Below are positions 8,968 through 15,803 of a stretch of DNA of 64,000 nt, in pieces. The stretch is from Escherichia phage humlepung, in sequence record MN850564.1; one strand, written 5' to 3'. The position numbers and the translations under genes were made by a program. The notes below the pieces were generated by a model. It was not told the origin of the DNA and ran no database searches. It saw only the letters and a list, made by a program, of their open reading frames with translations. Each line of letters opens with the position of its first letter. Within the stretch, counting starts at the first letter, position 1.

Positions 8968-10383
8968 ATGAGCGAATTATTTAAACATGCGCACCTTCAT
9001 GCAGGTCGAACTGAAAATGGTGCTGTAAACCATACTTCATCAATGTCTGCTCTTGTAGACTTTTACAAAGCTGCTGGTTCGAGCCGTAGCAATGTAGAAA
9101 TCTTACCAGACCTGTTCTACAAAGCTTTGCGTGAGGATGTTGATGTTGCAGTTCGTATTTTACTGCATATGCGAGATGTACGAGAAGGTATGGGTGAGCG
9201 TAAAGCTTTCCGAACTGTTTTACTTAAAGCAATTGAAGATAAGATTTTAGAACCTACACAGGTTCTTCGCATTATGGATAAGATTGCAGAACTTGGTCGT
9301 TTTGATGACTTCAAAATCTTCGTAGGTACTCGTTTTGAGACAGATGCCTTCAAACATTTAGAAGCAGCATTACTAGACCCTGCAACAGCAGGTTTGGCGG
9401 CTAAGTGGTTACCACGAGTCAAACCACGTCATAAGCAGTTTGTAAAACGTTTCTGCAAGTTTGCCAACTTGAGTGAGAAAGAGTACCGCACACTGTTGTC
9501 TGCACTATCTGATACAGTTGAGCAAAAAATCTCTGCTAATGAGTTTGGTAAGATTGACTACAGTAAGATTCCTTCACTTGCTGCTGCACGTTACCAAAAA
9601 CTGTTTAACCGTAAAGATGGAGAGCGTTACAAAGCTTACATCGAGTCCTTATCAAAAGGTGAGACTAAGATTAACGCTGGTGCTGTTTACCCATACGATG
9701 TGATTAAATCTGTCAAGTATGGTAATGCAGATGTTGCTAATGAGCAGTGGAAAGCACTACCAAACTGGATGGCAGAAGGTGAAAACATCTTGTGTATGTC
9801 TGATGTATCAAGTTCAATGTCTTGGGTGAATTTTGGCTCCATTACTGCTCTGGATATTGGTGTATCACTTGCCTTGTATGTAGCAGAACGCAATACAGGT
9901 TGCTTTAAGAATGAGTTAATGGTTTATTCAACAAACCCTCACTTCATCGAACTGAGTGGTGATTTACGAAACCGTCATCGTCAGGTGATGCGACACGTTG
10001 AATATGGCTCAACTAACTTACAAGCAGCTTTTGACCGCATTCTTGAAACAGGTAAAAGAAACAACTTGACTCAGAAAGATATGCCAAGTAAGCTTATCAT
10101 CTTCTCCGATATGGAGTTCAATCAGGTTGATGGAGCTAACGGTCGTACAAACTTTGAAGCAATTCAGAGTAAGTACAAAAAAGCTGGATATGAGATGCCA
10201 CAACTGGTATTCTGGTACTTAGCAAACCGTAATGGTACTTGCGAAGTATCTGTTAAGGATAACGGTGTAGCAATGGTATCAGGGTTCTCTCCAGCCACTT
10301 TAAAAGCTCTGCTTGGTGGTGAGAAGTTTGACCCAATCAGTGTAATGCTCAAAGCAGTAATGATTGACCGTTATATCTGGTAA
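8968..10383 (+). CDS. Ro60/TROVE-like protein with C-terminal von Willebrand factor A domain (DUF2828-like N-terminus by recollection)
   Basis: MIDAS-like DVSSSMS...T...IIFSDMEFN resembling Ro60 vWA (DVSASM / FTDCETN); N-terminal TENGA...S..ALVDFY motif. Confidence 0.6.
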   Translation: MSELFKHAHLHAGRTENGAVNHTSSMSALVDFYKAAGSSRSNVEILPDLFYKALREDVDVAVRILLHMRDVREGMGERKAFRTVLLKAIEDKILEPTQVLRIMDKIAELGRFDDFKIFVGTRFETDAFKHLEAALLDPATAGLAAKWLPRVKPRHKQFVKRFCKFANLSEKEYRTLLSALSDTVEQKISANEFGKIDYSKIPSLAAARYQKLFNRKDGERYKAYIESLSKGETKINAGAVYPYDVIKSVKYGNADVANEQWKALPNWMAEGENILCMSDVSSSMSWVNFGSITALDIGVSLALYVAERNTGCFKNELMVYSTNPHFIELSGDLRNRHRQVMRHVEYGSTNLQAAFDRILETGKRNNLTQKDMPSKLIIFSDMEFNQVDGANGRTNFEAIQSKYKKAGYEMPQLVFWYLANRNGTCEVSVKDNGVAMVSGFSPATLKALLGGEKFDPISVMLKAVMIDRYIW

Positions 10384-10402
10384 AAAGTTTTAAAAAGGGT
10401 AT

Positions 10403-10431
10403 TGACAATGTGTTTAATACCCTTTAATATG
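10403..10431 (+). promoter_or_regulatory. Sigma70-like promoter TTGACA-17-TAATAT inside inverted repeat AAGGGTATT/AATACCCTT
   Basis: Exact -35 consensus, 17-nt spacer, TAATAT -10; upstream of tRNA array. Confidence 0.6.
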
Positions 10432-10548
10432 TTCTACATAGAAGCGAAATGAGAGCTTTTCTAAGATACTGAAAAATATTTTAAAAAAGTTCTTGACAAC
10501 CACTAAAAAATAATGTTAAAGTGGTTACATAGAGTTTGAAAAGTTTAT

Positions 10549-10625
10549 CTCTGTTTAGCTCAGCTTGGTAGAGCGTTCCGTTTGGGGCGGTAAGGCCGGA
10601 GGTTCAAGTCCTCCAACAGAGACCA
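10549..10625 (+). tRNA. tRNA-Pro (anticodon TGG)
   Basis: 7-bp acceptor ctctgtt/aacagag, D-arm gctc/gagc, T-loop TTCAAGT, encoded CCA. Confidence 0.75.
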
Positions 10626-10632
10626 AATTAAT

Positions 10633-10710
10633 GTTCCAGTAGACAAAATGGTAAAGTCACCACTCTTTCAAAGTGGATATTTGAGGGTTCAAATCCCTTC
10701 TGGAACGCCA
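10633..10710 (+). tRNA. tRNA-Glu (anticodon TTC)
   Basis: Acceptor gttccag/ctggaac, anticodon loop cTTTCaa, T-loop TTCAAAT, CCA. Confidence 0.7.
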
Positions 10711-10715
10711 GTTTT

Positions 10716-10791
10716 GACAGAAGACCAATTACAGCAAACTTAATCTTATTCATCTGAAGGTAAATCGGACAAAGAAGAGATTTGGTCTGGT
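10716..10791 (+). repeat. Structured repeat element copy a (5' GACAGAAGACCA ... 3' TGGTCTGGTC)
   Basis: Member of four-copy family with conserved CAGAAGACC...TACAGCAA...GGTCTGG and covarying flanks. Confidence 0.5.
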
Positions 10792-10801
10792 CATTAAGAA
10801 T

Positions 10802-10878
10802 TGCGGGTATAGAGAAAGGGCGTCTCACATGTCTCATTAGCATGGTATCGGCAGGTTCGACTCCTGCACCCGCCTCCA
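10802..10878 (+). tRNA. tRNA with CAT anticodon (Met or Ile2)
   Basis: Anticodon stem catgt/gcatg, loop cTCATta, T-loop TTCGACT, CCA; 1:72 mismatch. Confidence 0.6.
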
Positions 10879-10882
10879 ATTT

Positions 10883-10946
10883 TGCAGAAGACCGTATTCA
10901 GCAACAAAATACTTTTTGCGGATAAAAGAAAAAACACGGTCTGGCA
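10883..10946 (+). repeat. Structured repeat element copy b (5' TGCAGAAGACCGT ... 3' ACGGTCTGGCA)
   Basis: Same family; flank covariation tGC/GCa. Confidence 0.5.
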
Positions 10947-10955
10947 ATGTATTAA

Positions 10956-11029
10956 GGTTAGGAAGCACATAAGGTATGTGCGGTCGCCTGTTAAGCGAAT
11001 GGCACAGGGTTCGAATCCCTGACTAACCG
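10956..11029 (+). tRNA. tRNA-Asn (anticodon GTT)
   Basis: Anticodon loop ctGTTaa, T-arm caggg-TTCGAAT-ccctg, acceptor 6/7 paired; no encoded CCA. Confidence 0.65.
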
Positions 11030-11040
11030 CAAAATTAAAT

Positions 11041-11128
11041 GTGTCGTTATCCCGTAGATGGTAGCGGTGGGGACTGTAAATCCCTTGTCATTGAGACTCG
11101 GTAGGTTCGACTCCTACACGGCACACCA
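11041..11128 (+). tRNA. tRNA-Tyr (anticodon GTA), type II with long variable arm
   Basis: 85 nt, acceptor gtgtcgt/acggcac, loop ctGTAaa, T-loop TTCGACT, CCA. Confidence 0.7.
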
Positions 11129-11133
11129 ATAAA

Positions 11134-11210
11134 GGCTATGTAGTTTAACTGGAGAAAATACTCCCCTGTCACGGGAGATGATGTGAGTTCAAGTCTCATC
11201 GTAGCCGCCA
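11134..11210 (+). tRNA. tRNA-Asp (anticodon GTC)
   Basis: Acceptor ggctatg/cgtagcc, loop ctGTCac, T-loop TTCAAGT, CCA. Confidence 0.7.
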
Positions 11211-11237
11211 ATTTTGAGAGGGCTATTTAGCCCCTCC

Positions 11238-11272
11238 CTTAAAGAGTTCTTACGAGTATTCTTTAAGGGAGC
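11238..11272 (+). repeat. Hairpin CCCTTAAAG-(agTTCTTACGAGtatt)-CTTTAAGGG
   Basis: 9-bp perfect stem; loop motif TTCTTACGAG recurs at 14277-14286. Confidence 0.5.
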
Positions 11273-11348
11273 AGAAGACCAAATACAGCAAGAATGTATG
11301 AAATTTCAAGCCAATTTAATTTTGAAAATTTAAAACTTGGTCTGGCTC
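11269..11348 (+). repeat. Structured repeat element copy c (5' GAGCAGAAGACCAA ... 3' TTGGTCTGGCTC)
   Basis: Same family; flank covariation GAGC/GCTC. Confidence 0.5.
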
Positions 11349-11354
11349 AACAAA

Positions 11355-11493
11355 TTTACAGAAGGCCGTTTACAGCAAAACTTAAACAATCTATTTCTCC
11401 GGTAAAGAAAAGGCGAAGGTTCGATTCCTTCACTCGGCAGATGTCGAGTTGGTGTAATGGTAGCACTTAAGATGATAAACAACGGTCTGGTAA
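11355..11493 (+). ncRNA. Candidate structured ncRNA (element copy d): terminal stem TTACAGAAGGCCGTT/AACGGTCTGGTAA enclosing tRNA-like T-arm and D-arm hairpins
   Basis: Internal gaagg-TTCGATT-ccttc hairpin with T-loop consensus, acceptor-like hairpin, D-arm-like gtgtAATGGTAgcac; no complete tRNA fold. Confidence 0.3.
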
Positions 11494-11639
11494 TTACCTT
11501 TGTAGATAAGTTATTAAGCTTACTTGTGAGTATGCGACCACAAAGGGTGAATGGGTAAATTCTAGATTTAAACCCAAAAAGGCACATCGCTACAGACCTT
11601 AAGCAAGTCTGGGTAGCTTATCTACAAAGATAATTTAAT

Positions 11640-11715
11640 GGAAGTGTAGCAGAATGGTGATGCGGCAGACTTTTAATCTGACAGGCGATGGGTTCGAATC
11701 CCTCCACTTCTACCA
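11640..11715 (+). tRNA. tRNA-Lys (anticodon TTT)
   Basis: Acceptor ggaagtg/cacttct, loop cTTTTaa, T-loop TTCGAAT, CCA. Confidence 0.65.
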
Positions 11716-11719
11716 ATAT

Positions 11720-11796
11720 GGTTCAGTCGCAGATAAGGTAATGCAAGGGTCTCATAAGCCCTATGAATGTGGGTTCGATTCCCATCTGAACCTCCA
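11720..11796 (+). tRNA. tRNA with CAT anticodon (Met or Ile2), second copy
   Basis: Perfect acceptor ggttcag/ctgaacc, loop cTCATaa, T-arm gtggg-TTCGATT-cccat, CCA. Confidence 0.65.
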
Positions 11797-11797
11797 A

Positions 11798-11873
11798 GCT
11801 GGTATAGTTAAGAAGGTTATAACACTCCCCTGATAAGGGAACATCGGTGGTTCGATTCCACCTACCAGTACCA
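11798..11873 (+). tRNA. tRNA-Ile (anticodon GAT)
   Basis: Loop ctGATaa, T-arm ggtgg-TTCGATT-ccacc, CCA. Confidence 0.65.
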
Positions 11874-11888
11874 ATTTCAATAAAGTTG

Positions 11889-11917
11889 TTGACATTGAGA
11901 TGTGACTACTTTATAGT
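11889..11917 (+). promoter_or_regulatory. Sigma70-like promoter TTGACA-17-TATAGT inside the tRNA region
   Basis: Exact -35, 17-nt spacer, TATAGT -10. Confidence 0.55.
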
Positions 11918-12121
11918 AACCTTAGTTTTCGTTGCGTAGCGTCTATTTTGCAAATTTAAAATAAATGCAAACGACAATGTTTTTCTGGCAGTAGCTTGAT
12001 AGGCTAAACACCAGTGAGGTCTTCCAATCCCTCATCAAAGAATTTGGCGTACTCGCCCACGGTATGATTAATAAGGTGGGCATCTTTAAGGGCTTTCTAA
12101 GAGAGTCTTTAAAGATAATTA

Positions 12122-12203
12122 CGGGGCGTATCTCAGCGGTCTTCTAAACCGCCGTTAACCGAGTAAGTGGAGTATGCGGGTTCGAGTCCTGCCGCCTCGA
12201 CCA
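12122..12203 (+). tRNA. Atypical tRNA-like gene, anticodon stem-loop gcggt-cTTCTaa-accgc (TCT, Arg-like), no recognisable D-arm, 23-nt extra segment
   Basis: 7-bp acceptor cggggcg/cgcctcg, T-arm gcggg-TTCGAGT-cctgc, CCA; only 7 nt between acceptor and anticodon stem. Confidence 0.4.
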
Positions 12204-12346
12204 ATTTAGTTAGCAGATTACTTAGACGACCTTAGCGGGTCTTCCTGTAGGGAGGTGGTCTGTATCTCATGTTTTCCAGAACATGTAAATAATCTGAGAA
12301 GGGGCTTTACAGTGTTGAGATAATACGGTAAGCTTCGAATTATAGT

Positions 12347-12429
12347 ATGGGACGATATTAAGACTCTAAGGCATGAGCAACGGCTTCCAACACCGTTTCA
12401 AAGGGGTTCAACTCCTCCGTCCCATGCCA
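12347..12429 (+). tRNA. Atypical tRNA-like gene, anticodon loop compatible with CCA (Trp) closed by a C-A pair, or 9-nt loop
   Basis: Perfect acceptor atgggac/gtcccat plus CCA, T-loop TTCAACT; D-region irregular. Confidence 0.35.
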
Positions 12430-12442
12430 AAGTCTTATTAGG

Positions 12443-12530
12443 GGTAGGTAGCGGCTAATGGTAGCCAAACTGTCTTGAAAACAGTTGCCACTGTAGAGAT
12501 ACGGTGAGGGTTCGACTCCTTTACTTACCG
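12443..12530 (+). tRNA. tRNA-Ser (anticodon TGA), type II
   Basis: 88 nt, stem actgt/acagt with loop cTTGAaa, long variable arm, T-loop TTCGACT. Confidence 0.65.
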
Positions 12531-12787
12531 CCTAATAAGATTTAAAGCCAAGCTTCATTCGGATGTTGCTTTGGTATACCGCGTGTATTGTTGTACGCAC
12601 TGATAAAGCACCTAGTAGGTGTCACGGAGAAGAGATAATATCAAGCTCTCCAAAGGTTCTAGTCACCGGATTAAACAAGACTATGCAAAGACCTTTTTAG
12701 GTCTTTTTAGAGGGCTTCTAAGGTTATTACAGCTTGTTGTGGAACCTTGTTGCTTAGGTTCTTAGAAGTTCTCTAAAAAGATTTAAT

Positions 12788-12865
12788 GGGAGATTGACGG
12801 TAATTGGTAAACCTACCATCCTTAGAAGTTGGTGTTTGAGGGTTCGAATCCCTTGTCTCCTACCA
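12788..12865 (+). tRNA. tRNA with TAG anticodon (Leu-type anticodon but short, type-I length)
   Basis: Acceptor gggagat/gtctcct with G-U pairs, loop ctTAGaa, T-arm gaggg-TTCGAAT-ccctt, CCA. Confidence 0.5.
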
Positions 12866-12872
12866 AATTAAT

Positions 12873-12948
12873 GCAGGTGTAGCAAAATGGTTATGCGGCT
12901 GACTCTTAATCAGTAAGACGATGGGTTCAATTCCCTCCACCTGTACCA
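12873..12948 (+). tRNA. tRNA-Lys (anticodon CTT)
   Basis: Stem gctga/tcagt, loop ctCTTaa, T-loop TTCAATT, CCA. Confidence 0.55.
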
Positions 12949-12954
12949 GACATT

Positions 12955-13030
12955 GGGGTCATAGTTTATATGGTTAAAATTCGAGTTTTGCAAACTTGGG
13001 AACTGAGTTCAATTCTCAGTGACTCCACCA
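12955..13030 (+). tRNA. tRNA-Ala (anticodon TGC)
   Basis: G3:U70 wobble pair in acceptor (Ala identity element), loop ttTGCaa, T-arm ctgag-TTCAATT-ctcag, CCA. Confidence 0.75.
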
Positions 13031-13036
13031 ATTAGT

Positions 13037-13111
13037 GCATCCATAGTTTAAACGGGAAAATTACAGTCTTCCAAACTGAGGTTGAGGGTTCGATTCCCTC
13101 TGGATGCTCCA
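13037..13111 (+). tRNA. tRNA-Gly (anticodon TCC)
   Basis: Perfect acceptor gcatcca/tggatgc, loop ctTCCaa, T-arm gaggg-TTCGATT-ccctc, CCA. Confidence 0.7.
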
Positions 13112-13117
13112 AACAAT

Positions 13118-13194
13118 GCTGCTTTCGTATAATTGGCTATTACACATCCCTTGTAAGGATGGAAATGCAGGTTCGAGTCCTGTGAGCAGCACCA
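13118..13194 (+). tRNA. tRNA-Thr (anticodon TGT)
   Basis: Perfect anticodon stem catcc/ggatg, loop ctTGTaa, T-loop TTCGAGT, CCA. Confidence 0.75.
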
Positions 13195-13199
13195 ATTCA

Positions 13200-13283
13200 G
13201 AGGTCAAGTGAAAGACCGCTGGTGTCAACTGAAGACCGTAACAAATTCCACGGAGTTGAGTTAGCGGCACAACTTCAGACCTC
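13200..13283 (+). repeat. Stem element AGAGGTC...GACCTCT enclosing a GAAGACCGTAAC motif
   Basis: 7-bp terminal inverted repeat; internal CTGAAGACCGTAACAAA resembles the 5' arm of elements a-d. Confidence 0.4.
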
Positions 13284-13289
13284 TTTCAC

Positions 13290-13364
13290 ACTCGCTTAGT
13301 TTATATGGTAAAACACCACCCTTACAAGATGAAGAAAAAGGTTCAAGTCCTTTAGTGAGTACCA
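13290..13364 (+). tRNA. tRNA-Val (anticodon TAC), tentative isotype
   Basis: Acceptor actcgct/agtgagt, loop cTTACaa, perfect T-arm aaagg-TTCAAGT-ccttt, CCA; anticodon stem has mismatches. Confidence 0.55.
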
Positions 13365-13365
13365 T

Positions 13366-13443
13366 GTTCCAGTATCCCAATTGGCAGAGGATGCAAGCTC
13401 AAACCTTGTATTAGTGACGGTTCGAATCCGTCTTGGAACACCA
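13366..13443 (+). tRNA. tRNA with CAA anticodon (Leu-type anticodon, type-I length)
   Basis: Acceptor gttccag/ttggaac, stem gcaag/cttgt, loop ctCAAac, T-arm gacgg-TTCGAAT-ccgtc, CCA. Confidence 0.55.
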
Positions 13444-13462
13444 ATTTAAAGAGGCTATTTAG

Positions 13463-14020
13463 ATGAGATATTTGAAGTATGCTTCATGGATTTTCCTAGC
13501 TTTACTAGAGCCATTTGCAGCAACCCTAGCAGTCATCTTAGCACCTTTCGTAGTTCCATTCTACAGTGAGAAGAAAGGACACTTACCTTTCGGGTTCAGA
13601 TGGATGGAGACATATGACAACCCAATTGATGGTGATGAAGGTCACGTTAAAAGATGGGCTAATATTAGATGGATTGGTAAACTAGGTGTCTACATGCAAA
13701 GAGTTGGATGGCTCTGGAGAAACAAAGCTTATAACTTCTCTTACCATGTATTAGGAAGAGATGTAAAAGATGTTACTAAGTGGAAAGGTAATATCAACGT
13801 AAGTTCTAACCCTGAAGATAATCAGACTGGTTATCTCCTAATGTGGAACAGGAATGCTTGGGGATTATTCGCTTTTATCCCATCAATTAAAATCTTTGGT
13901 AAACAATTTTACTGGAGAATTTATATTGGATGGAAACTAAAAAGTGTTGTCCCAGAAGAAAGAGCATTCTCAAGGGAAAGAGTTATGTTGGCATTCTTTA
14001 TTCATCCACTGAGAAAGTAA
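13463..14020 (+). CDS. hypothetical membrane protein (185 aa, Trp-rich) encoded inside the tRNA array
   Basis: ATG with AAAGAGG RBS; N-terminal hydrophobic segment. Confidence 0.55.
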   Translation: MRYLKYASWIFLALLEPFAATLAVILAPFVVPFYSEKKGHLPFGFRWMETYDNPIDGDEGHVKRWANIRWIGKLGVYMQRVGWLWRNKAYNFSYHVLGRDVKDVTKWKGNINVSSNPEDNQTGYLLMWNRNAWGLFAFIPSIKIFGKQFYWRIYIGWKLKSVVPEERAFSRERVMLAFFIHPLRK

Positions 14021-14028
14021 AGATTTAA

Positions 14029-14104
14029 AGGGGATTAGTTTACAAGGTTAAAACCTCGGTCTTTGAAATCGAAGAAGTTGGTTCAATTCCAACATCCCCC
14101 GCCA
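14029..14104 (+). tRNA. tRNA-Gln (anticodon TTG)
   Basis: Loop ctTTGaa, perfect T-arm gttgg-TTCAATT-ccaac, CCA; 1:72 mismatch. Confidence 0.6.
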
Positions 14105-14106
14105 AT

Positions 14107-14185
14107 GCTCCATTACTCCAATTGGCAGAGAGGCCAGACTTAAAATCTGTGTTATGTATCGGTTCGAATCCGATATGGAGTACCA
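14107..14185 (+). tRNA. tRNA with TAA anticodon (Leu-type anticodon, type-I length)
   Basis: Loop cTTAAaa, T-arm atcgg-TTCGAAT-ccgat, CCA; D-arm resembles the CAA tRNA. Confidence 0.5.
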
Positions 14186-14190
14186 AATTT

Positions 14191-14266
14191 AGCGGTATAG
14201 CATAACTGGCAATGCAGCAGTCTCTGAAGCTGTCTTATTAAGGTTCAAATCCTTATGCCGCTGCCA
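14191..14266 (+). tRNA. tRNA-Gln (anticodon CTG), tentative
   Basis: Acceptor agcggta/tgccgct, D-stem gcat/atgc, loop ctCTGaa, T-arm taagg-TTCAAAT-cctta, CCA. Confidence 0.55.
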
Positions 14267-14267
14267 C

Positions 14268-14294
14268 TTCTAAGGATTCTTACGAGAGTCCTTA
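14268..14294 (+). repeat. Hairpin with loop motif TTCTTACGAG (second copy)
   Basis: aaggaTTCTTACGAGagtcctt; motif shared with 11250-11259. Confidence 0.45.
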
Positions 14295-14297
14295 AAT

Positions 14298-14373
14298 GTG
14301 GCCTTATCATAAATGGTAATGACCCATGCTGTGAACATGGTCTATACGGGTTCAAATCCCGTAGGTCACCCCA
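14298..14373 (+). tRNA. tRNA-His (anticodon GTG)
   Basis: Perfect anticodon stem ccatg/catgg, loop ctGTGaa, T-arm acggg-TTCAAAT-cccgt, CCA. Confidence 0.7.
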
Positions 14374-14379
14374 ATTTAT

Positions 14380-14455
14380 AGTCCAAGTAGCTTATATGGT
14401 TAAAGCGCGTGTCTGAAAAACATGAGAAGAGGGTTCAAATCCCACTGGACTACCA
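14380..14455 (+). tRNA. tRNA-Phe (anticodon GAA)
   Basis: D-stem gctt/aagc, loop ctGAAaa, T-loop TTCAAAT, CCA; acceptor register uncertain by 1 nt. Confidence 0.6.
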
Positions 14456-14471
14456 ATTTCAAAGGTGCTTA

Positions 14472-15206
14472 ATGAAAGAGATGACAGAACAAGGTAAGGA
14501 GATTTTTAATCTCTTAAAAACCGGTAAAGGGTTTTCTAACCCACTTATTACTGGTGCAGCAGTTCTCGGTGGAACCGTAGCTGCCTCTACATCACTTGTA
14601 AGCTCTATTAGCTCTGTAACAGACCCTACAATGAAGGAGAAGCTTGTTGCTGCTGGACTTACAACAGTCCTTCTAAACAGCTTTACAACAATCCTGACAA
14701 GCACTACAGCAACCACTAAGACCCTAACAGACTACGGTCAAAAGTCTATTGATGAGTTTTCATCACGTATGCAGGTAGCAAAGGGATATTCCAATGTTAT
14801 GGGTGCAGCAGGAGAACAAGTTGGTTGTACACCATTCAGTGGTATTATGGGTGTTGCTACAGAGTATGGTCAAAAAGCTATTGACATGATTAACAGTACA
14901 CTAGATAGTGTTAATGGTGTGTTAAGTGACTTACAAGACGCTATTGATGAGGGTCTTGATACTGTTTCTGATTTAGCTAATCAGGCTGTTAGTAAGATTA
15001 ATGAAGGTATTTCAAAGATTACAGCTTATGCAGATGAAGTTGTGCAGATGATTGAAGAAGAAGCTGCCCTTATTGCAGAGTACCTTAAAACGAATATCAA
15101 TGGGTTCTTAGCAGGTATCTTACCAGACTGGTTTGATGATGCTTGTAAAACTGGTGTAATTGATGCTATTGCAACACCAGAAATGAAGAACGCATTACAG
15201 AAATAA
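14472..15206 (+). CDS. hypothetical protein (244 aa, Ala/Thr/Ser-rich)
   Basis: ATG at 14472 with AAAGG RBS; the track start at 14409 would overlap tRNA-Phe. Confidence 0.5.
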   Translation: MKEMTEQGKEIFNLLKTGKGFSNPLITGAAVLGGTVAASTSLVSSISSVTDPTMKEKLVAAGLTTVLLNSFTTILTSTTATTKTLTDYGQKSIDEFSSRMQVAKGYSNVMGAAGEQVGCTPFSGIMGVATEYGQKAIDMINSTLDSVNGVLSDLQDAIDEGLDTVSDLANQAVSKINEGISKITAYADEVVQMIEEEAALIAEYLKTNINGFLAGILPDWFDDACKTGVIDAIATPEMKNALQK

Positions 15207-15207
15207 T

Positions 15208-15300
15208 GGAAGATTAACCCTAAAAGGTAAGGGAGCAGTTTGCTAAACTGCCAGTAGCTGAGAAATCGGTGTACCAGTTCAAGTCTGGTATCTTCCTCCA
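15208..15300 (+). tRNA. tRNA-Ser (anticodon GCT), type II
   Basis: Perfect acceptor ggaagat/atcttcc, stem gcagt/actgc, loop ttGCTaa, long variable arm, CCA. Confidence 0.7.
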
Positions 15301-15304
15301 ATTT

Positions 15305-15380
15305 GAATCCGTGACAGAAATGGCTATGTGCCTGTCTGCAAAACAGGTTTATAAGGGTTCGAGTCCCTTCGGATTCTCCA
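15305..15380 (+). tRNA. tRNA-Cys (anticodon GCA)
   Basis: Perfect acceptor gaatccg/cggattc, stem cctgt/acagg, loop ctGCAaa, T-arm aaggg-TTCGAGT-ccctt, CCA. Confidence 0.75.
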
Positions 15381-15416
15381 AGTTATTTTACTCTCTCTCA
15401 ATTAAAATAATAATAA

Positions 15417-15478
15417 TGCCCTGCTATAAGTATTCTTCCTTTCGCTACCGAAGAGTATTTTTAGACAGGGCTTTTTTA
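15417..15478 (+). terminator. Long imperfect hairpin (gccctg...cagggc) followed by TTTTTT
   Basis: Inverted repeat plus T-run after the tRNA array. Confidence 0.45.
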
Positions 15479-15542
15479 CAGAGTTATACTTTATAGGAAG
15501 ACTTATACAGTATGTCTCTGACGTACATTGTGGTTTCTCCTT

Positions 15543-15566
15543 GACGGTCTCTGTGCCGTCTTTTTT
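15543..15566 (+). terminator. Rho-independent terminator gacggtctctgtgccgtc + TTTTTT
   Basis: 5-bp GC-rich stem, 8-nt loop, T-run. Confidence 0.5.
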
Positions 15567-15602
15567 AAGGAGAAACATGATTAATTATTTGGAGAAAACA
15601 TA

Positions 15603-15803
15603 ATGAGTGAGACCATTTATAAAGAACTTTATGAAGCTAATAAGAAGCTAGAGTTTATGCAGAATACTATCATGGCAATTGCAGATAGATTATCTGTAGC
15701 AACAGGTATAGATATTAAAGAAGCATCTATGGATGCACTTCTTGATGCTGTTGATGCAAAGTTCGAAGTTAAGAAAGAAGAGACTGCGACAGACTCTGAA
15801 TAA
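15603..15803 (+). CDS. hypothetical small acidic protein (66 aa) upstream of terminase
   Basis: ATG with GGAG RBS. Confidence 0.4.
   Translation: MSETIYKELYEANKKLEFMQNTIMAIADRLSVATGIDIKEASMDALLDAVDAKFEVKKEETATDSE

Follow-up and report, generated by a model that had tools for sequence, protein, structure and literature searches.

The cloverleaf is among the most conserved of RNA folds, and to our knowledge departures from it outside organelles are very rare. Mitochondrial (mt) tRNAs that lack a D arm, such as metazoan mt-tRNA-Ser(AGY) and the mt-tRNAs of nematodes, dispense with the D hairpin and join the acceptor stem to the anticodon stem by a short connector. Here we consider two short genes in the tRNA cluster of Escherichia phage humlepung (record MN850564.1), within a stretch of 64,000 nucleotides (nt) that was analysed as a whole and is called the window below. 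Element 1 (E1; 12122-12203, 79 nt plus CCA), which we recognized from its sequence, its Rfam match and 137 homologues, is a putative non-canonical tRNA-Arg(UCU), and element 2 (E2; 12347-12429, 83 nt), recognized from its sequence, its presence in 235 phage records and covariation, is a putative non-canonical tRNA-Trp(CCA). Both elements and their parts, like the tRNA cluster, the promoter match and the spacer described below, are on the plus strand.

E1 resembles the D-arm-lacking mt-tRNAs in its missing D hairpin and in the shortness of the stretch that links its acceptor stem to its anticodon stem. Unlike them, it keeps a D-stem-like helix (helix X, described below) and a GG-containing segment that resembles a D loop, its T arm is canonical throughout, its length does not vary, and it is encoded by phages of bacteria whose tRNAs are all canonical. 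A second comparison is provided by the canonical tRNA-Arg(UCU) that some related phages carry in the same genomic slot, a 77-nt allele of VpaE1_ev108 and JohannRWettstein, which is like E1 in its anticodon loop CUUCUAA, its 7-base-pair (bp) acceptor, its 5-bp anticodon stem, its 5-bp T stem with a UUCGA loop, its A/G73, its CCA end and the sequence AANUGGA. E1 differs from this allele in having no D hairpin, in that its nt 11-13 find their partner 3′ of the anticodon arm, in carrying the D-loop-like sequence in the variable region, and in having a three-way instead of a four-way junction. In YrlA (RF02553) a loop closes the acceptor, and what corresponds to the anticodon stem leads into the Ro-binding stem. 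E1 shares a tRNA-like acceptor/T module with YrlA, and some of its relatives (class II, see below) have no free CCA end, but the anticodon loop of E1 is intact, and class I copies, the window's among them, end in a free N-CCA; E2 too has an anticodon loop and a free CCA. No YrlA match was obtained on either element with Rfam, the sole YrlA hit in the region being at 14319-14441 (17.3 bits, E = 7.5).

Phage tRNAs that resist host nucleases, such as the T5 tRNA-Lys in relation to PARIS AriB and tRNA-Thr in relation to P2-OLD, are like E1 phage-encoded replacements of host tRNAs with an altered anticodon stem or D loop, but they are ordinary cloverleaves with point changes, which E1 is not. Allo-tRNAs and tRNA-Sec have 8/4, 9/3 or 8/5 acceptor/T branches (PMC5389517). 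E2 can similarly form an 8-bp acceptor and a 4-bp T stem, although it has a 5-nt variable loop and no long variable arm of Ser or Sec identity, a 9-nt connector from acceptor to D arm, a Trp anticodon and G73. With the tRNA-Trp(CCA) variants that have an unpinned anticodon stem, and with the Hirsh (G24A) and A9C suppressors (PMC13092985), E2 has in common a non-Watson-Crick C.A where the anticodon stem meets its loop, which thereby reaches 9 nt, and an altered 8-9/D-stem region; those variants are otherwise canonical, and the window gives no sign of UGA recoding.

The fold of element 1

E1 reads CGGGGCG-UAUCUCA-GCGGU-CUUCUAA-ACCGC-(23 nt, CGUUAACCGAGUAAGUGGAGUAU)-GCGGG-UUCGAGU-CCUGC-CGCCUCG-A-CCA. 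An initial annotation, made from the letters of the window, had described it as a 7-bp acceptor, a T arm, CCA and a clean TCT anticodon arm, with only 7 nt where the D arm should be and an extra segment of 23 nt, and all of these features are indeed present (one of the acceptor pairs is G.U). E1 is not called by ARAGORN, while the Rfam tRNA model (RF00005) scores it at 31.7 bits against a gathering score of 29, in an alignment that deletes the D arm and places a 20-nt insertion in the variable region. The same view, of an absent D arm plus an insertion, was taken in the initial annotation. Its lengths were right but its anatomy was incomplete, as the 7 nt and the 23-nt segment pair with each other around the anticodon arm.

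The evidence for this pairing comes from the homologues of E1. Covariation was assessed in 65 unique copies, every one exactly 79 nt from the start of the acceptor to the discriminator, and the final set comprised 137 well-formed unique copies, again all of 79 nt. In the 65 copies, 94.5% of cells in the structure were paired and double changes were found in 18 of 21 pairs, giving a covariation score of 0.778 relative to 0.193 for shuffled alignments, none of 500 of which reached it, and to 0.16 or less for slid controls. A fourth helix, helix X, is formed by nt 11-13 (sometimes 14) with nt (39)40-42 and encloses the anticodon arm. All 137 copies form it, through 23 combinations of sequence: pair 12:41 is UA in 84 copies, AU in 26, GC in 23 and CG in 4, and pair 13:40 is CG in 116, GC in 11 and UA in 10. 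This proves that E1 has four helices, including the new helix X.

E1 is a three-way junction made of the acceptor, U8-A9-U10, helix X on the anticodon stem, a C-R-U-Y-A-A-N linker, the 3′ strand of helix X, the segment U-AANUGGA-GUAU and the T arm. The 5′ strand of the acceptor (nt 1-7; 12122-12128) pairs with 12193-12199, double changes affecting all seven pairs in a helix that is 99.1% paired and occurs as 95 distinct acceptor sequences. The linker U8-A9-U10 (12129-12131) lies outside the search anchor and is strongly conserved (T8 and A9 100%, T10 96%, n = 137). The 5′ strand of helix X, C11 U12 C13 (12132-12134), has as its covarying partner G40 A41 G42 (12161-12163), and the two strands enclose the anticodon arm (12136-12152), with its stem 12136-12140:12148-12152, in which five of five pairs covary, and its loop CUUCUAA, with the anticodon TCT at 12143-12145. 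From the anticodon stem to the 3′ strand of helix X runs the linker C-R-U-Y-A-A-N(-N) (12153-12160; C32, A36 and A37 100%, T34 99%, T35 96%). The segment U-A-A-N-Y-G-G-A-G-U-A-U (12164-12175) was invariant in 30 of 31 unique copies collected with the anchor placed elsewhere in the molecule. There follow the T arm (12176-12192; 5-bp stem, 98.8% paired, with double changes in three pairs; loop UUCGAGU) and the 3′ strand of the acceptor with discriminator A (12200) and encoded CCA (12193-12203), an N-CCA end being present in 98 of the 137 unique copies. A 7-bp acceptor, a 5-bp anticodon stem with a 7-nt loop, a 5-bp T stem with a UUCRA loop and N-CCA are features of standard tRNAs that E1 has, with covariation, whereas a D-arm hairpin between positions 9 and 26, where there are only 7 nt, is absent.

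Two other pairings were considered and rejected. The second GAG of E1 is no partner of nt 11-13, since that pairing breaks in every sequence in which nt 12 varies, and an internal hairpin in the extra segment proposed by RNAalifold (39-41:48-50) pairs nt 40 and 41, which vary freely, with a strand in which nt 47-49 are fixed. Nucleotides 40 and 41 covary with nt 13 and 12, and the extra segment does not form the hairpin of a type II variable arm. The minimum free energy (MFE) fold of the single E1 sequence was uninformative (z = 0.04).

What does helix X represent in terms of a standard tRNA? The AANUGGA of E1 is the same heptamer as A14-A20 (AACUGGA) of the D loop in the canonical 77-nt allele, and the simplest reading would be that helix X replaces the D stem and that the GG-containing segment replaces the D loop at the elbow. 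The 5′ strand of the D stem and the D loop would in effect have moved to a place 3′ of the anticodon arm, with the last U before the T stem where U48 is expected. We found no prior description of such a fold in a full-text literature search that left out most subscription journals, and there is no dedicated Rfam family for E1 or E2; the E1 fold is likely novel.

Two further observations concern variation in the fold. Within Felixounavirus, at about 95% identity overall, the anticodon stem of E1 turns over through paired compensatory changes, unusually fast for a stem of 5 bp (GCGGU:ACCGC at 12136-12152 of the window, and GCUGU:ACAGC and UCUGU:ACAGA in the comparisons with locus L040 and phage heid, L015). 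In addition, four metagenome loci (L418, L442, L381 and L400) hold E1 relatives that share the U-AANUGGA-GUAU/T-arm core but have a linker of about 2 nt instead of 7 and, at the 5′ junction, GUACCGGU, so that the RUYAA linker is not universal in the wider family; two of them have a CCT anticodon.

Probable arginine identity and phage distribution of element 1

The cluster that contains E1 and E2 (10549-15380) holds 24 canonical tRNAs according to ARAGORN, which cover 18 amino acids and leave only Arg and Trp without a called tRNA. These are the two amino acids indicated by the anticodons of E1 and E2, respectively. The 1.8 kb around the two elements matches some 270 Felix O1-like phages (Felixounavirus) at 95-99% identity, and AGA is the most used arginine codon in the long open reading frames (ORFs) of the window, at 40.5% of arginine codons or 16.7 per 1000 codons. 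The genome paper of Felix O1 listed 22 tRNAs and noted that an Arg[AGA] tRNA was expected and not found (PMC3185647). E1, as we read its anticodon, would explain this gap.

Anticodons were counted with a search anchor at nt 42-64 of E1 that left the anticodon free. Among the 137 unique copies the anticodon is TCT in 127, ACG in 4, CCT in 4, TCG in 1 and ACT in 1, so C35 and U/G36 are found in 137 of 137. The discriminator is G in 83 copies, A in 50 (the window copy among them) and T in 4, that is, G or A in 133 of 137. The identity set of bacterial arginyl-tRNA synthetase (ArgRS) is A20, C35, U/G36 and A/G73 (PMC9976931); an invariant A follows GG in the AANUGGA of E1, a likeness to A20 in sequence, and this A may also occupy the A20 position in space. 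One metagenome contig (L395, Ga0255783_10000721, 37.5 kb) carries three copies of the E1 scaffold at reverse-strand offsets 774, 3377 and 7873, with anticodons ACG, TCT and CCT and each with a G-CCA end, which indicates that a single phage uses the E1 architecture for three arginine isoacceptors. There is no stronger argument than these anticodons that the E1 scaffold would be specific for arginine, and charged with it, rather than a decoy for an anticodon-specific factor, because anticodons of both arginine codon boxes share only recognition by ArgRS.

How does E1 relate to a canonical tRNA-Arg? In five aligned Felixounaviruses the slot that holds E1 has identical flanks and two alleles. VpaE1_ev108 and JohannRWettstein have form A, the canonical 77-nt tRNA-Arg(TCT), which is called by ARAGORN, and the window phage, Si3 and VpaE1_ev035 have form B, the 82-nt E1. 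The two forms differ over their whole length, and E1 is therefore a replacement and not a mutated copy. More widely, E1 and the canonical gene have a complementary distribution: a separate canonical tRNA-Arg(TCT) was found in 2 of 97 E1 loci and in none of the 73 with an N-CCA end, many E1 loci being clusters of 15-26 tRNAs that include tRNA-Arg(ACG).

Near-full-length copies of the 82-nt E1 were found by BLAST, at 82-90% identity, in unrelated groups of phages: T5-like phages of Klebsiella and Serratia, phi92-like phages, rV5-like phages, the 350-kb Asteriusvirus jumbo phages and Erwinia Kolesnikvirus, with a partial and more divergent copy in a Vibrio phage. In GenBank these copies are nearly always unannotated or labelled "tRNA-OTHER". 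Pattern scans of IMG/VR and metagenomes added many more; patterns of 14-15 bases gave mostly chance matches in IMG/VR, including a recurrent false positive in a coding sequence, and matches were filtered by architecture. A scan of 185,579 bacterial and archaeal species representatives with the E1 core pattern found it in no isolate genome, the only matches being four contigs from metagenome bins and three chance matches, and neither element has a match in 5,426 complete genomes of E. coli. The E1 scaffold is widespread and restricted to phages.

Element 2 and the tRNA-Trp of related phages

Neither ARAGORN nor Rfam recognizes E2 as a tRNA: RF00005 gives no match at E ≤ 10, and the tRNA-Sec model scores 14.5 bits (E = 3.8; gathering score 47). 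The initial annotation credited E2 with a perfect acceptor, a perfect T arm and CCA. The acceptor and CCA held up, but the T stem contains an A.C mismatch if it is given 5 bp, and is more likely to have 4 bp under an 8-bp acceptor (ATGGGACG:CGUCCCAU), for 12 bp in all. The anticodon loop is as that annotation had it, with 9 nt, or with 7 nt reading CCA only if a C.A pair closes it. Small shifts of the boundaries did not turn either element into an ordinary cloverleaf.

The 8-nt 5′ strand of the E2 acceptor (12347-12354) pairs with 12418-12425 in 100% of cases, and pairs 1:72 and 2:71 covary. Its eighth pair, G8-C, is possible in all copies, invariant and part of the 8-bp acceptor of the MFE fold. 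In place of U8-N9 there is a 9-nt connector A-U-R-U-U-A-A-G-A (12355-12363), invariant save for R in 13 unique sequences that include those of Yersinia and Pectobacterium phages, and within it is the RUYAA motif also present in the E1 linker. The D arm (12364-12377) has a 3-bp stem CUC:GAG, the middle pair of which is UA in 8 and AU in 5 sequences, and the loop UAAGGCAU. The anticodon arm (12379-12397) has a 5-bp stem AACGG:CCGUU, with covariation in four of five pairs, and a 9-nt loop CUUCCAACA with C.A at its ends and CCA at 12387-12389, the loop following the pattern C-Y-U-CCA-A-M-M. A 5-nt variable loop (UCAAA) leads to the T arm (12403-12417; stem GGGG:CCUC, first pair GC in 11 and UA in 2; loop UUCAACU), and the discriminator G73 and encoded CCA (12426-12429) are invariant in all copies. 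Over the 13 unique sequences 99.6% of cells were paired and there were eight pairs with double changes, distributed over the acceptor, D, anticodon and T stems, and none in slid controls. Since E1 and E2 are both conserved with compensatory changes in every stem, they are not chance resemblances to tRNAs.

The determinants of the E. coli tryptophanyl-tRNA synthetase (TrpRS) are G73, the CCA anticodon and A1-U72 (PMC9976931). In E2 the first two are invariant, and the first pair is A-U in 8 unique sequences (as in the window), G.U in 3 and G-C in 2. All 235 records with E2 are of Ounavirinae-type phages (Felixounavirus, Mooglevirus, Suspvirus, and relatives infecting Yersinia and Pectobacterium), and neither specific scans nor BLAST found a wider E2 family outside the Ounavirinae. 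A canonical tRNA-Trp (56.8 bits in Rfam) is present in Erwinia phage Ep030, which belongs to a sister genus that lacks E2; this phage carries E1 and has no canonical tRNA-Arg. The anticodon arm of the Ep030 tRNA-Trp, CGGCCUCCAAAACCG, is identical to that of E2 variants, C31.A39 closure included, so that the C.A of E2 is an inherited feature of the tRNA-Trp of this lineage and not damage. E2 replaces the canonical tRNA-Trp of the sister genus. Phage Sf14, reported to cover 19 amino acids (PMC12482277), has E2 together with the canonical Arg allele.

We also considered whether E2 might have a role in UGA readthrough or recoding and rejected it, there being nothing unusual in stop usage (of 68 stops TGA accounts for 15, most of them with another in-frame stop close behind). 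In E1 and E2 alike, a strand of the D stem, or of its counterpart, is preceded by R-U-Y-A-A-N and followed by U-A-A..GG, a shared motif that hints at a common core design.

Function, alternatives and the surrounding cluster

The reading we favour, to which we give a probability of roughly 0.72, is that E1 and E2 are functional, non-canonical tRNAs (Arg-UCU and Trp-CCA) that would complete the phage's own tRNA set. The initial annotation had offered non-canonical tRNAs, tRNA mimics and decayed genes as options; it is the first of these that is best supported. We infer that both elements would be transcribed and processed, aminoacylated and used for decoding by the ribosome as three-dimensional equivalents of tRNA. 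E1 would decode AGA. Its helix X extends the anticodon stem and creates the three-way junction, and U-AANUGGA-GUAU, in effect a tRNA-Arg D-loop sequence in which the A that follows GG matches A20, the determinant on which ArgRS chiefly relies, would take the place of the D loop at the elbow, whereby the L shape and recognition by ArgRS (A20, C35, U36 and A/G73) would be kept. E2 would act as a tRNA-Trp(CCA) that keeps the TrpRS determinants on an altered frame, with an acceptor of 8 bp over a T stem of 4 bp, a D stem of 3 bp reached through a 9-nt connector, and an anticodon loop of 9 nt closed by C.A. The redesign may have been driven by escape from tRNA-cutting systems of the host or, alternatively, from homing endonucleases directed at the canonical gene. 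Host Toprim nucleases cut the anticodon stems of tRNAs and read the D loop, and phage tRNAs escape them via changes there (PMC12445682; bioRxiv 10.1101/2025.02.04.636281). In the literature on tRNA-cutting defences we found no nuclease of these hosts that acts on tRNA-Arg(UCU) or tRNA-Trp. A more ambitious version of this scheme, to which we would give somewhat less than even odds, is that E1 is a natural alternative tRNA architecture, L-shaped, charged by ArgRS and used by the ribosome, in which the 5′ half of the D arm has been relocated 3′ of the anticodon arm, and which evolved in phages and spread, in part by homing endonucleases, because its rewired core evades tRNA-cutting host defences or other factors that read the D arm or anticodon stem; E2 would then be a second, independent redesign on the same RUYAA-N-stem-UAA..GG core.

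Several points weigh against a tRNA function. Both elements are rejected by ARAGORN, and E2 by Rfam as well. Most E1 loci are partial contigs, such that the absence of a canonical tRNA-Arg(TCT) holds for loci and not for whole genomes. In two scans the search anchor itself held part of the "invariant" core of E1 (nt 42-64) constant, and the roles of the A of UGGA as A20 and of helix X as D stem are ones that we infer from structure. For E2, diversity is low (13-16 unique sequences from one subfamily), and covariation does not support the 8/4 arrangement of acceptor and T stem over 7/5. Finally, about 13% of unique E1 copies (class II; loci L010, L014, L026, L029, L033, L047, L053, L077, L079 and L277) have no CCA, and their acceptor helix runs a further 13-23 bp into leader and trailer, reaching 20-30 bp in total, whereas the canonical tRNAs beside them encode CCA in 87 of 95 cases and have no leader/trailer helix. 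The class II copy at L077 sits 16 nt from a canonical tRNA-Arg(TCT). Class II copies may reflect another route of maturation or may be uncharged mimics.

Could E1 and E2 themselves be such mimics, an Arg or Trp anticodon arm joined to an acceptor/T minihelix that is never charged and soaks up a host tRNA nuclease, a modification enzyme or some other tRNA-binding factor? Class II copies, with their closed terminal helix and, in one instance, a canonical gene for company, are what this idea would lead one to expect, as are cores so unusual that standard tRNA finders reject them, and tRNA-cutting host defences that read the anticodon stem or D loop and are counteracted by phage tRNAs are known. 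On the other hand, four different arginine anticodons from both codon boxes have in common the ArgRS identity nucleotides and no loop that a nuclease could recognize in all of them; most E1 copies end in N-CCA with A or G as discriminator, and their acceptor is always of 7 bp and their T loop canonical; E1 and E2 substitute for canonical tRNA-Arg(TCT) and tRNA-Trp and are not their companions; and the phage needs AGA to be decoded. We consider mimicry unlikely, less so for the CCA-less class II relatives; it is the alternative that fares best.

The neighbours of E1 raise a different question, namely, whether it belongs primarily to homing endonucleases. In many unrelated lineages a free-standing HNH gene begins 6-150 nt downstream of E1, of families HNH_3 (two subgroups, 25-54 bits), HNH_2 (24.7 bits) and HNH (17.6 bits, sub-threshold). 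Seen alongside the presence of two alleles at one slot and the close similarity of copies from different phage families, these neighbours suggest that E1 has spread by homing-assisted transfer. It has to be considered, then, that E1 is mainly an endonuclease companion, serving beside HNH genes as a replacement allele that resists cleavage or as a signal for RNA processing, that its odd sequence serves to evade the nuclease, and that tRNA function is secondary or lost; two alleles between identical flanks are the expected trace of homing-driven replacement, and 82-90% identity across unrelated families speaks for horizontal transfer. Most E1 copies, the window's included, have no adjacent endonuclease gene, however, and a role purely at the level of DNA would leave selection on RNA structure, anticodon and CCA unexplained. 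Homing is also compatible with a working tRNA and not an alternative to one, and we regard a primary role in homing as improbable. Decay into pseudogenes after indels in the cluster, an option raised in the initial annotation, for which one might cite the failure of ARAGORN, the "tRNA-OTHER" label of E1 in some GenBank records and a genuine tRNA fragment elsewhere in the cluster (about 11382-11440), is refuted for all practical purposes by compensatory changes that maintain every helix of both elements (with a score about four times that of shuffles for E1, 0.78 to 0.19, and eight double-change pairs to none for E2), by the identical length of 137 divergent E1 copies in unrelated phages, which are not recent copies of one sequence given their 95 acceptor stems, and by an invariant single-stranded core and strictly kept arginine anticodons.

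With regard to the surroundings of the two elements, the best sigma-70-like promoter match in 10300-15700, TTGACA-17-TATAGT at 11889-11917 (11 of 12 consensus matches), lies about 200 nt upstream of E1, and no terminator-like site was seen between E1, E2 and tRNA-Ser, both being results of consensus matching. The 143-nt spacer between E1 and E2 (12204-12346) is invariant in five relatives that vary elsewhere and contains stretches able to form hairpins, such as CATGTT-TTCCAG-AACATG; it may encode a small structured RNA or have a part in processing. A search of the gaps in the cluster for more hidden tRNA-like genes found none except a single T-arm-like fragment, GAAGG-UUCGAUU-CCUUC, at 11382-11440 within a 429-nt gap (11211-11639). 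This fragment has a partial Rfam tRNA match (22 bits, model positions 7-64) and no matching 5′ strand of an acceptor, and is probably a tRNA remnant. A motif CAGAAGACC ... GGTCTGG recurs in spacers between tRNAs (10711-10801, 10879-10955 and about 11270-11350), where it could form a hairpin closing about 45 nt; a signal for processing is one possibility, a repeated element of the spacers another. A long hairpin at 12693-12792, immediately upstream of tRNA-Leu(TAG), draws spurious Rfam matches to plant miRNA precursors (MIR473, 32.7 bits, sub-gathering). Two canonical tRNAs of related phages also deserve mention: the VpaE1_ev035 homologue (L004, 720-796) of the window's second tRNA-Met(CAT) (11720-11796) has, by a point change in an otherwise conserved tRNA, the anticodon CGT (Thr), and in Salmonella phage Si3 (L003, 135-211) ARAGORN reports a tRNA-Asp homologue with a 4-base anticodon, gtca, that is, an 8-nt anticodon loop.

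What would these elements mean for the phages that carry them? If the E1 scaffold is charged and decodes, then the core of tRNA is more open to re-wiring than has been assumed, and ArgRS, EF-Tu, RNase P and the ribosome would all tolerate a tRNA with a three-way junction. E1 would also be a ready-made scaffold for engineering, possibly one that is nuclease-resistant or orthogonal. As standard annotation skips both elements, the tRNA complements of phages, and analyses of codon adaptation based on them, would be systematically wrong for Arg(AGA) and Trp, the "22 tRNAs, none for AGA" of Felix O1 and the "19 amino acids" of Sf14 being examples. Lastly, E1 and E2 would provide a concrete test case for whether host immunity that targets tRNAs, or homing endonucleases, may drive structural innovation in the tRNAs of phages.

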